DNA from: Parachlamydiales bacterium
GTDB taxonomy: Bacteria; Chlamydiota; Chlamydiia; Chlamydiales; SM23-39
DNA length: 64,000 nucleotides
Reading direction: 5' to 3'
Assembly: GCA_015661075.1 (NCBI GenBank)
Contig: JACVQJ010000003.1
Coordinates: forward strand, 28,623 to 92,622
Part shown: in pieces, positions 6,935-47,475 of the stretch
How positions within the stretch are numbered: position 1 is the first letter of the stretch
Layout: every line of letters begins with the position of its first letter
The notes under the pieces: generated by a model
Databases searched by the model: none
Seen by the model: the letters and a program-made list of their open reading frames with translations, nothing else
Told to the model about the DNA's origin: nothing
Made by a program: the position numbers and the translations under genes

Positions 6935-7112
6935 AATCATTCTCGAGCTAAAGGCTGTAGAAAAAGTCCTTCCCGTTCATGAGGCTCAGCTTTTGTCCTA
7001 TCTCCGACTATCAAACAAACAGGTGGGTCTCTTGATCAATTTTAACGTTCCTGTTCTCAAGAAACTTTTGGAAAACGCTGAGTTTAAAAGAACTGAGACG
7101 CCGAGACGCTGA
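6906..7112 (+). pseudogene. C-terminal remnant of a GxxExxY-family protein, 3' end fused to a palindromic repeat
   Basis: ..DEIILELKAVEKVLPVHEAQLLSYLRLSNKQVGLLINFNVPVLKK.. matches the conserved C-terminal half of GxxExxY proteins. The N-terminal half, including the GxxExxY motif, is absent. From codon 57 (nt 7074) onward the residues are encoded by repeat family F. Confidence 0.6.
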
Positions 7113-7332
7113 GAAAGAAAAAAATGCACAAGAGTGAGGGATACAAGCCGCCCATGTTTGCAAATGCATGCATGCGAAGCTGCGAAACTTTTAAGAAAGA
7201 AAGGGCACTTGAAAACCTGGCGTTAATTAGCCCCCTTTCTTTCTTAAAAGTTTCGCAGCTTCGCATGAAGAGCTTCGCTCAACATAGGCGGCCTCAGCGC
7301 CTCGGCGTCTCAGTTCTTTTAAACTCAGCGTT
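7074..7332. repeat. 259-bp nested palindromic element (family F)
   Basis: Outer 40-bp inverted repeat, 7074-7113 vs 7293-7332, with 1 mismatch (aacgctgagtttaaaagaactgagacgccgag..). Inner perfect 35-bp inverted repeat, 7171-7205 vs 7233-7267 (catgcgaagctgcgaaacttttaagaaagaaaggg). One copy in the window. No flanking direct repeat seen. Confidence 0.85.
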
Positions 7333-7389: not shown

Positions 7390-7571
7390 CTCGACTTTGT
7401 ACATTTTTAGGGCCGCCTGCCTCGCCTATTTGCCCTCTGACGTTCGACCTCTGGTCGAACTAGACGTTTATTTAATAAGGAAGGGGATAGTCAACCCCCT
7501 TCCTTATTAAATAAACGCCTCTGAGGGCAAATATTTCGAGGCCTTCGCCCCTAAAAATGTACAAAGTCGAG
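7390..7571 (+). mobile_element. family A MITE-like palindromic element, copy 1 (182 bp)
   Basis: Terminal inverted repeats ctcgactttgtacatttttaggg.. / ..cctaaaaatgtacaaagtcgag. Internal 8-bp hairpin gttcgacc-tctg-ggtcgaac and a long central hairpin. Flanked by the perfect 5-bp direct repeat attat (7385-7389 and 7572-7576). Confidence 0.9.
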
Positions 7572-13959: not shown

Positions 13960-14026
13960 GAACCTGGTCCCCTTTAATTTTCTTCATAGGGGCTGTCAGG
14001 GAATAAAGTAAAGGCAACTGTTTAGA

Positions 14027-14196
14027 GAGCCATTCCCGATGTGCCTCTTCGACGATATTCGGAATCTTTTCGACGATTTTACGCCCATTTTTCCGAAGTC
14101 CATATAACTCAAGGAGATATTGGACTTCGGAAAATGGGGTAAACTCGTTCGAAAATATCCCGAATCTCCCCGAAGAATTCACATCGGGAATGGCTC
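14027..14196 (-). mobile_element. family B MITE-like palindromic element, copy 1 (170 bp)
   Basis: Terminal inverted repeats gagccattcccgatgtg / cacatcgggaatggctc. Imperfectly palindromic interior. Flanked by the perfect 5-bp direct repeat ttaga (14022-14026 and 14197-14201). Inverted relative to copy 2. Confidence 0.9.
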
Positions 14197-14203
14197 TTAG
14201 ATA

Positions 14204-26579: not shown

Positions 26580-26723
26580 TTGAACGCATTTCTTGCCGCA
26601 ATCCCACCCCTTCAGGGGTGGGTCTAGGCAAGATATTTTATTCGTGCGGTAAGCGGCTTTAGCCGCACCGCCTCCAAAAGCTACGTAAAGAATCTCCTCC
26701 TTTTAAGGAGGAGTTCTTCAAAA
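26580..26723 (-). repeat. family C multi-stem-loop repeat, copy 1
   Basis: As a reverse complement it matches 45750-45904 nearly base for base. It contains stems cccacccc/ggggtggg, gcggc/gccgc, cttgcc/ggcaag and ctcctcc/ggaggag. Confidence 0.85.
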
Positions 26724-32804: not shown

Positions 32805-32854
32805 AGTTACCTTTAAAAAATTAAATTATGTCTTTTGGTGTGGATTTCCTCAAG

Positions 32855-33023
32855 GAGCCATTCCCGATGTGAATTCTTCGGGGAGATTCGGGATATTTTC
32901 GAACGAGTTTACCCCATTTTCCGAAGTCCAATATCTCATTGAGTTATATGGACTTTGGAAAATGGGCGTAAAATCGTCGAAAAGATTCCGAATATCGTCG
33001 AAGAGGCACATCGGGAATGGCTC
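32855..33023 (+). mobile_element. family B MITE-like element, copy 2 (169 bp)
   Basis: Same termini as copy 1, in opposite orientation. Flanked by the perfect 5-bp direct repeat tcaag (32850-32854 and 33024-33028). Confidence 0.9.
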
Positions 33024-33094
33024 TCAAGAGTTTGCTTGACCCGATAACGGGGGGCAGAGGATAATGGGCGCATAAGAATTGATAGGGGGATGGT

Positions 33095-46218: not shown

Positions 46219-47475
46219 TTGCACGATTTGGCTCTGGTTTTTATTTTACTTTTTTTGATTTCGGGATCTGCATTACTGTCTGCATCTGAAACGGCGCTTT
46301 TTTCATTATCGCCTTTGACGCTGCGCTATTATCGCACTGCCAACGATCCGCACCAGAGACTGATCTCTCAGCTCATGGATCGGCCTCGCGATGTGTTGGT
46401 CACGATTCTTATCATGAACGTTGTTTCCAATTTGCTGATCCAAAACACCGTTTCGAGCATTTTTGATCAATTCGGCTACTGGACCCTCAAAGTGGGTCTT
46501 CCTCTTGTCCTCGTACTGGTATTTGGAGAGGTCATTCCCAAATCGATTGCATTGCCGAACAATGCAGCGATAGCTTCCAAAGCGGCACCCGTTGTCAATT
46601 CACTGATGCGATTATTCAGGCCTTTTCTCGTTCGGCTAAATAGTCTGGCCAGTTTGATTTCCCGCGTTGTTTTCTTTTTCCTGCACGAGGATGAAGAGAT
46701 TAGCGCCGACGAGCTGCGCCACGTCGTCAAGACTTCATTGGCCGGCGGCGTATTAAGCCGCCACGAGGCCGAGCTGATCGACGGCGCTTTGGATTTAAAG
46801 GACGCCACCGTGAAAGAACTCATGCGTCCGCGCGATGAAGTGCTTTTTTACGATATTCAGGAGCCGATGCCGCAGCTGATGCATCTGTTTGTCGCGCAAA
46901 AATATACTCGTATTCCCGTCTGCGATTCCCAGCTCGACAATTTGTTGGGCATCCTGTCGGTCCGGCGATTTTTCTTTCACCAGGAAAAAATACATTCCAG
47001 TGCTGATCTGGTCCCGATTTTAAAAAAACCCTATTTTGTTCCTGAAACCACTAATGGCTGGTCATTGCTCCAGACCTTGCGCGAAGCGGGCGAGGACATG
47101 GCGATTGTGGTGGACGAGTATGGCTCGATTTCCGGATTGATTACGCAGGAAGATTTGATTGAGACGGTTGTAGGGCAGATCGCCCGGCAGGATGAAAAGA
47201 GCCTATATACCCGATCCGGCGACGATGTCATCATCGCCAGCGGAAAAATGGAGATCAGCGAGTTTGAGGATCTGTTTGGCGTGAAGCTTTTGTCCAAAGA
47301 AAATCCAGTGACTTTGGGAGGATGGTTGATCGAGCAGCTGGGAGACATTCCGGCCGCCGGTACAAAATACGCCACAGATGATTTTCTTTTTTATGTTCTG
47401 GCCGCCGATCCGAACAGGATTCGAAGAATCTATGTCCGACGCATTCGCACGCCGAAAAAAGGATGGAAGCGATGA
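46219..47475 (+). CDS. DUF21(CNNM)-CBS-CorC_HlyC hemolysin-like membrane protein
   Basis: Four N-terminal TM helices, a CBS pair and a C-terminal CorC/HlyC-type domain. TTG start as listed. First of a tandem pair. Confidence 0.85.
   Translation: MHDLALVFILLFLISGSALLSASETALFSLSPLTLRYYRTANDPHQRLISQLMDRPRDVLVTILIMNVVSNLLIQNTVSSIFDQFGYWTLKVGLPLVLVLVFGEVIPKSIALPNNAAIASKAAPVVNSLMRLFRPFLVRLNSLASLISRVVFFFLHEDEEISADELRHVVKTSLAGGVLSRHEAELIDGALDLKDATVKELMRPRDEVLFYDIQEPMPQLMHLFVAQKYTRIPVCDSQLDNLLGILSVRRFFFHQEKIHSSADLVPILKKPYFVPETTNGWSLLQTLREAGEDMAIVVDEYGSISGLITQEDLIETVVGQIARQDEKSLYTRSGDDVIIASGKMEISEFEDLFGVKLLSKENPVTLGGWLIEQLGDIPAAGTKYATDDFLFYVLAADPNRIRRIYVRRIRTPKKGWKR

Follow-up and report, generated by a model that had tools for sequence, protein, structure and literature searches.

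Correia elements of Neisseria (CREE/NEMIS) are non-coding, intergenic, multi-copy sequences of ~100−155 bp that have 26-bp inverted ends and a TA duplication and occur also as shortened variants. They are co-transcribed with the neighbouring genes, their transcripts fold into hairpins, and both RNase III processing and promoter activity have been documented. ERIC sequences (IRU) are imperfect palindromes of ~127 bp, which are found in transcribed intergenic DNA at orthologous sites across species, vary in size and are presumably under constraint for the structure of their RNA. Rickettsia palindromic elements (RPEs) of 100−150 bp have proliferated in an obligate intracellular bacterium, and different species keep them at orthologous sites. 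However, RPEs often lie within genes, in the reading frame, and show no clear combination of inverted ends and duplications. The Tn3-derived miniature elements (TIMEs and integron mobilisation units, IMUs) are non-autonomous, measure ~200−300 bp and generate 5-bp duplications, and the Tn3-type inverted repeats are ~38 bp long and begin with GGGG. Mobile DNA abounds in environmental chlamydiae, in contrast to the pathogenic Chlamydiaceae.

The window, which was the whole 64-kb stretch of Parachlamydiales DNA analysed, showed the chlamydial bamA-ompH-lpxD gene order and a G+C content of ~49%, and contained two copies of a repeat designated family B. Like the Correia elements, family B was short, non-coding and multi-copy, and it had inverted ends, a hairpin and shortened forms. 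However, 5 (or 4) A+T-rich bp were duplicated at the target, and the 17-bp ends were unrelated to the 26-bp ends of Correia elements. Orthologous persistence and compensatory changes were shared with ERIC, whereas the sequence, the phylum and the duplication were different, since family B had clear 5-bp duplications and a much stronger genome-specific homogenisation. As in RPEs, a palindromic repeat was kept at orthologous sites, but it was intergenic and had defined ends and duplications. In its behaviour family B most resembled ERIC, Correia and Rickettsia palindromic elements.

Other known types were considered and rejected. The 15 perfect 5-bp duplications of family B were reminiscent of TIMEs and IMUs, but the perfect repeat was 17 bp long and began with GAGCC, the 38-bp ends of the GGGG type were absent, and no Tn3-type transposase was seen. 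A MITE derived from IS630/Tc1-mariner (Correia, RUP, Nezha) would have a TA duplication, whereas that of family B was 4−5 bp long and varied in sequence. REP/BIME (RAYT) and IS200/IS605-type sequences are 20−40-bp palindromes or sub-terminal hairpins, which have no inverted ends and no target duplication, when family B is 170 bp long and has both. We know of no IS family that combines a GAG... terminus with a variable 4/5-bp duplication; the termini of IS1380, IS701/ISAba11, ISH3 and the IS2 group, all with 4−5-bp duplications, presumably differ from those of family B. In searches of the open literature, neither chlamydial MITEs nor the family-B end sequence were found to be described. Family B hence appears to be undescribed, although as a MITE it is of an ordinary type. 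Bacterial MITEs are well known, and family B adds a chlamydial case in which the hairpin is kept by matching mutations. Its value lies in the frozen ends as opposed to the structure-kept interior, in a deep series of persistence and decay at the ssb site, and in the evidence of homogenisation.

The coordinates of both copies, their opposite orientation and their corA/lpxD and ridA/ssb settings, as given in the initial annotation, were found to be exact by sequence reading, alignment and Pfam searches (CorA PF01544, LpxD PF04613, RidA PF01042 and SSB PF00436). The features are listed in Table 1.

Table 1. Features of the two family-B copies and of their surroundings (positions in the window)
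Feature	Position	Strand	Remarks
Family-B copy 1	14027..14196	+	170 bp; + strand runs from end A (GTGCCTCTTCG) to end B; 7 nt beyond the stop codon of lpxD and 67 nt ahead of the corA start, both genes on the − strand
Copy 1 end A, terminal inverted repeat GAGCCATTCCCGATGTG	14027..14043	+	exact match
Copy 1 end B, terminal inverted repeat	14180..14196	−	exact match
Copy 1 target-site duplication TTAGA, left	14022..14026	n/a	
Copy 1 target-site duplication TTAGA, right	14197..14201	n/a	
Mechanical ORF, 76 aa	13952..14182	−	runs through copy 1; not a gene
Family-B copy 2	32855..33023	−	169 bp; − strand reads end A to end B; in the gap of the divergent ridA/ssb promoters, end A 71 nt before the ATG of ssb
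Copy 2 end B, terminal inverted repeat	32855..32871	+	
Copy 2 end A, terminal inverted repeat	33007..33023	−	
Copy 2 target-site duplication TCAAG, left	32850..32854		overlaps the predicted ridA −35 hexamer (TTGAGG, − strand)
Copy 2 target-site duplication TCAAG, right	33024..33028		immediately upstream of the conserved ssb promoter
ssb promoter-like site TTGACC-N18-GATAAT	33036..33065	+	conserved in relatives; outside the element
ridA promoter-like site TTGAGG-N17-CATAAT	32825..32853	−	abuts copy 2; consensus match only
Reconstructed empty site of copy 2			...GGATTTCCTCAAGAGTTTGCTTGACC...
Family-B element bounds			GAGCCATTCCCG...CGGGAATGGCTC

When the two copies were aligned in opposite orientation, one 1-nt indel and two substitutions were counted (~98% identity). 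Alignment in the same orientation still gave 84% identity, so the element was an imperfect palindrome, and it folded as a single long hairpin; the imperfectly palindromic interior described earlier was thus confirmed. The shared terminal inverted repeats were perfect over 17 bp at all four ends, and the reported perfect 5-bp direct repeats (ttaga/ttaga and tcaag/tcaag) were present in the sequence at both copies. Exact GAGCCATTCCCGATGTG occurred four times in the window, always at element ends, whereas 0.28 matches were obtained in the shuffled window even at a tolerance of three mismatches. No third copy was detected in the window with an nhmmer profile of family B. The junction of copy 1 was also present in another assembly of the same strain.

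Further, the exact end sequence was scanned for in 596 Gb of DNA with one genome per species, and 98 loci were obtained. Most of these were single chance matches, as expected of a 17-mer in a dataset of this size. However, 31 loci belonged to one Chlamydiae MAG, clean362 (DAIDIM01), in which ~40 copies or fragments of family B were recognised. At least 15 of the 31 loci were located where a contig ends, as is usual for repeats that interrupt an assembly. Family B thereby causes fragmentation of chlamydial MAGs, since no fewer than 15 contigs of clean362 terminate within a copy. The exact end was also detected in clean353, in Rhabdochlamydiaceae SMAG_U1308 and in MFD05580.bin.2.37 (labelled Verrucomicrobiae), and family-B copies were present in clean362 and four other chlamydial assemblies. 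By BLAST, full-length copies 83−91% identical to those of the window were found together with shortened and truncated ones. The metagenome scan added ten more loci, including the JGI contigs Ga0206225, Ga0206882 and Ga0055467; the copies of the Ga0206225 contigs were 93−96% identical to those of the window. The census of copies suggested earlier thus revealed further ones in relatives, while the own genome yielded two copies in the ~73 kb covered.

The target duplications were compared in 32 two-ended elements. Perfect 5-bp duplications were found in 15 elements and perfect 4-bp ones in 6; five more had a 5-bp duplication with one mismatch, two had 3 bp and four had none. When left flanks were paired with right flanks of other elements, duplications of at least 4 bp appeared 0.34 times on average and three times at the maximum, in contrast to the 21/32 perfect 4−5-bp duplications observed. 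The flanking-repeat statistics therefore favoured the earlier proposal. The duplicated 5-mers were 83% A+T and showed no further consensus in the flanks of the 32 insertions. The elements were intergenic, and about half of them lay within 12 nt of a stop codon.

Neither a clean empty site nor an insertion polymorphism was seen, as the orthologous sites in relatives were filled or contained decayed remnants. For copy 1, no comparable site was available in relatives with LpxD of 73−82% identity, because those relatives have other genes downstream of lpxD. The downstream gene was different in each relative examined (L099−L101), namely a peptidase C69, a DUF498 gene and a short ORF, and copy 1 was consequently placed at the lpxD/corA synteny break (window 14197−14210). 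Several family-B copies were old, so that mobility in the present day is putative. Family B marks both old and recent insertions and could serve as a lineage marker.

The inverted ends, the target duplications, the dispersed copies and the lack of coding capacity are the anatomy of a MITE, and on these features (169−170 bp, non-coding, inverted ends, duplications, dispersed copies) family B is supported as a bacterial MITE. The initial annotation, in which a MITE-like mobile element was proposed, was thus upheld: the same ends were found on many dispersed chlamydial copies, and the non-coding, intergenic elements had duplications far above chance. We proposed, with a probability of about 0.85, that both copies belonged to a MITE family of environmental chlamydiae (Parachlamydiales and relatives) that behaves as follows. 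A non-coding, nearly complete palindrome of 170 bp would be mobilised by a transposase supplied in trans, which most likely recognises the invariant 17-bp ends. Judging from the anatomy, integration would take place by a 5-nt (sometimes 4-nt) staggered cut into A+T-rich intergenic DNA, resulting in the duplication of the target. The inserted copies would persist for a very long time and would decay by a symmetric loss of the palindrome centre, so that two ends are left. The likeness of copies within a genome would most simply be kept by gene conversion between them, and the interior would be held to a hairpin shape rather than to a sequence.

The folding of the element was compatible with this proposal. 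As DNA, family B formed one long hairpin of −60.3 kcal/mol (z = −14), and the RNA of the opposite strand reached −107 kcal/mol (z = −16). A structural alignment was built of 21 near-full-length elements (167−172 bp) from all lineages sampled. The outer 9 nt were invariant in 21/21 elements, and the outer helix (columns 1−17 with 157−173) essentially never varied, although the lineages were 65−90% identical overall; it was kept even in the ~65%-identical elements of L033 and L113. In the interior helices, by contrast, both sides had changed in 16 of the 51 pairs while 97.7% of the cells remained paired. Only 3.9 ± 1.3 such changes were observed in column-shuffled controls (16 was reached in 0/500) and at most 9 with slid partners. 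For example, the central stem was CCGAAGTCC/GGACTTCGG in the window, CGCAAAGC/GCTTTGCG in clean362 and TCGAAGTCC/GAACTTCGA in L070. The invariant ends probably represent a transposase recognition site, and the compensatory changes indicate that the interior is constrained for pairing and hairpin shape, not for sequence. Family B may hence be regarded as a natural experiment, in which sequence-frozen ends with the signature of protein recognition are opposed to a compensatory interior, and in which orthologous copies track the paralogues of their own genome. Certain asymmetries between the arms (CCT versus AAT after the end, GACGAT versus GRGGAG) were common to all lineages; a fresh inverted duplication in each genome was therefore ruled out as the source of the palindromy.

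The persistence of family B was best followed upstream of ssb, where the conserved promoter-like site served as an anchor of the insertion point in the cross-genome comparison. Contig L010 of clean362 was syntenic with the ssb-pepA region of the window (Ssb 54% and PepA 51% identical), and its copy, oriented like copy 2, started at a distance of exactly 71 nt upstream of the ATG of ssb. The right terminus GGCTC was located 12−14 nt upstream of the ssb −35 hexamer in the window, clean362, L105 and L103/L104. At this site, L105 (PepA 71%) retained a 32-nt remnant, GAGGCCATGCCCG-CGATAA-CGGGAATGGCTC, and L103/L104 (PepA 73%) a 9-nt remnant, GAGC-GGCTC; the ridA-ssb spacer was 150−170 nt in the closer relatives as against 290 nt in the window. 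With a full-length element in two lineages and remnants in the two others at a shared position, it was concluded that the site had been occupied before the four lineages split. A second site, immediately downstream of smpB, was shared by clean362 and clean353, in which an 83-bp derivative was present. Elements of 131, 123, 95, 83, 80, 71, 70, 63, 45, 32 and 9 nt were recorded, all with both ends kept. Long palindromes are expected to undergo symmetric central deletion, and the graded lengths together with the ssb remnants were interpreted as a decay series of this kind.

However, the orthologous copies were not mutual closest relatives. The ssb-site copy of clean362 had clean362-type bases and was ~97% identical to its paralogues; in general, identities reached 90−99% among the copies of clean362 and 98% between those of the window, whereas they were 83−91% between genomes. 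The 71-nt spacer beside the element was only ~42% identical between the window and clean362. Such a pattern was contrary to simple vertical descent and required either homogenisation or re-insertion. Gene conversion was favoured over re-colonisation, because the insertion sites showed no sequence specificity, and it would be the simplest explanation of the likeness within genomes.

It is unlikely, in our estimate, that the shared ssb-upstream position arose by repeated targeted re-insertion, through homing to an end remnant or to a structural feature. Such homing would explain why each full-length copy at the site resembled the paralogues of its own genome and why the duplication of copy 2 was still perfect, and the clean362 copies positioned directly beside family-A ends (see below) hint at insertion next to other elements. 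Nevertheless, a target consensus beyond A+T richness was lacking in the 32 insertion flanks, and no older end remnant was present beside copy 2. The distance from terminus to promoter varied only within 12−14 nt, which is what descent accompanied by small indels would give. The perfect duplication at so old an insertion may in turn be explained by its overlap with the ridA −35 hexamer and its contact with the ssb promoter, where selection may preserve it.

Strand asymmetry was observed as well. The strand running from end B to end A folded 10−35 kcal/mol better as RNA than its complement in ~29 of the 32 elements, with 3−8 G·U pairs compared to 0−2 on the complement. Most arm-to-arm transitions yielded G·U pairs on the B-to-A strand (~16 independent events versus ~5 opposite ones, a count made by eye and with no formal test), and many asymmetric G·U sites were shared by descent. 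The B-to-A strand was the sense strand in 11/14 co-directional gene pairs (one-sided p ~0.03) and in 7/8 full-length elements of such pairs, including copy 1 of the window (lpxD/corA). The orientation bias towards the sense strand is only suggestive. The G·U asymmetry would fit selection on a transcribed hairpin and could also be produced by a C-to-T mutation bias that is linked to transcription and affects the sense strand. We infer, with moderate strength, that upon co-transcription with the neighbouring genes the hairpin plays a role as RNA, or that at least its mutations arise at this level. A further step, namely that the hairpin is under strand-specific RNA-level selection at gene ends and that the copies are renewed by conversion or homing, is somewhat unlikely, though a real chance; if true, the ssb/ridA gap would have stayed occupied since before chlamydial lineages with ~50% protein identity diverged.

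An element of MITE origin may alternatively have been domesticated, so that family B would now be primarily a host-selected RNA or DNA structure, for example a hairpin with a regulatory role, a site for RNase III or a stabiliser of 3′ ends, and would owe its wide conservation to function and not to mobility. The compensatory maintenance of the hairpin, the asymmetric G·U pairing, the usual sense orientation of the better-folding strand and the frequent proximity to stop codons all speak for it, as does the retention of the ssb-upstream copy between genomes whose Ssb/PepA are ~52% identical and whose spacers have diverged. We regard this explanation as quite improbable. In two closer relatives the element at the ssb site was reduced to 32 nt and 9 nt, and no consequence was visible; copy 2, being located between divergent promoters, is probably part of neither transcript. 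That most copies have perfect duplications points to recent transposition and not to a set fixed long ago. Additionally, no Rfam family matched family B at gathering score, the only hits being sub-threshold models of miRNA precursors, i.e. generic hairpins (E≤1), and no terminator-like T-run followed the hairpin, by which an intrinsic terminator was rejected.

The possibility that the repeats resemble each other by chance, arose in the assembly or encode a small protein is practically negligible, since in spite of the mechanical ORF through copy 1 the exact 17-mers far exceeded the shuffled expectation, independent assemblies of the same strain contained the copy-1 junction, the family recurred in independent MAGs and metagenomes, and the ORF was disrupted in the majority of copies, being frameshifted in copy 2 and stopped after ~20 codons in clean362 copies, and had no Pfam match. 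The initial annotation had already judged that ORF probably not to be a gene.

An autonomous partner of the MITE family, as sought on the suggestion of the initial annotation, did not emerge from the window, the 121 fetched loci, PLSDB, IMG/VR or the metagenome scan. Pairs of ends 0.4−3 kb apart were absent from the window and the fetched loci, and no multi-copy ORFs were found in the window or the chlamydial loci. Pfam revealed no transposase among ten uncharacterised ORFs of the window, and the ORFs beside solo ends in L106, L107, L108 and L112 were housekeeping genes. BLAST of PLSDB plasmids with the element and with its 36-nt end gave nothing relevant, the IMG/VR scan gave four chance matches in coding DNA only, and the metagenome scan gave no ORF-carrying element with family-B ends. 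The identity of the transposase would show how environmental chlamydiae reshape their intergenic regions.

A second palindromic repeat, family A (termini CTCGACTTTGTACA), was located at 7390−7571, 31318−31497, 42988−43167, 50737−50895 and 26759−26854 of the window. It was similar to family B in being palindromic, ~180 bp long and flanked by 5-bp duplications (ATTAT and GTTAA perfect, three others matching at 4/5), and the two families co-occurred in the window, in Ga0206225 and in the flanks of clean362 copies. The termini, however, had no similarity to those of family B. Both points, the common duplication length of 5 bp and the unrelated termini, had been noticed in the initial annotation and were correct. 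The common length would be in keeping with the related transposases suggested there as one option. In the Ga0206225 contigs (L110), family-A copies 92−93% identical were found alongside family B; a 272-aa ORF (10171−10989) situated between two inverted family-A copies appeared by eye to have a U-box/RING-like motif and was dismissed as a transposase candidate, since it looked like a U-box/RING effector. In clean362, a family-B copy followed a family-A terminus (AAGTCGAG) after 6−8 nt, end to end, in L053 (~7720−7740) and L081 (~7625−7645).

Elements sharing part of family B were encountered elsewhere. Six loci of soil Alphaproteobacteria MAGs (L015, L016, L040, L058, L090 and L094) contained a ~213-bp palindromic element, the first 18 nt of which were the family-B end from the very terminus. 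By contrast, its interior was unrelated, its other end was GAGCAAATCCCGAAAGC, and it was always flanked by YTA|...|TAG, i.e. by a TA duplication in a CTAG-like target and not by 5 bp. The difference in duplication length argued against the same enzyme acting on both elements. It is unlikely that a chance 17-mer would land exactly on the terminus of this element (~1 in 1,000, a rough estimate that was not computed). Plasmids matched the alphaproteobacterial element only through an internal GC-rich motif. In Rhabdochlamydiaceae SMAG_U1308 (L095 3691−4052), a ~195-bp palindromic element with termini CAGGGAAATTGCATGATAAA was nested in a family-B-type element, the 167-bp form of which was present in L033.

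Several other features of the window were recorded. A third repeat family of ~145 bp occurred in inverted orientation at 26580−26722 and 45758−45901, and was met once more in this genome, 5 kb ahead of the window (L120 4014−4160). Nested near-perfect palindromes (40-nt arms 179 nt apart and 35-nt arms 27 nt apart) were found at 7074−7332; they adjoin a family-A copy, and independent assemblies of this strain break there (L120 ends at window position 7266). Direct repeats of 80 nt with 94% identity (44292−44371 and 45896−45975) bracketed a low-GC segment with an orphan 352-aa ORF (44558−45616, − strand) that had no Pfam match. Only two Rfam matches at gathering score were obtained in the window, a lysine riboswitch (62474−62647, − strand) and a bacterial small SRP RNA (40543−40642, − strand). 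Finally, tandem overlapping CNNM-CBS-CorC paralogues, putatively involved in Mg2+/Co2+ efflux, were located on the + strand at 46219−47475 and 47463−48689.
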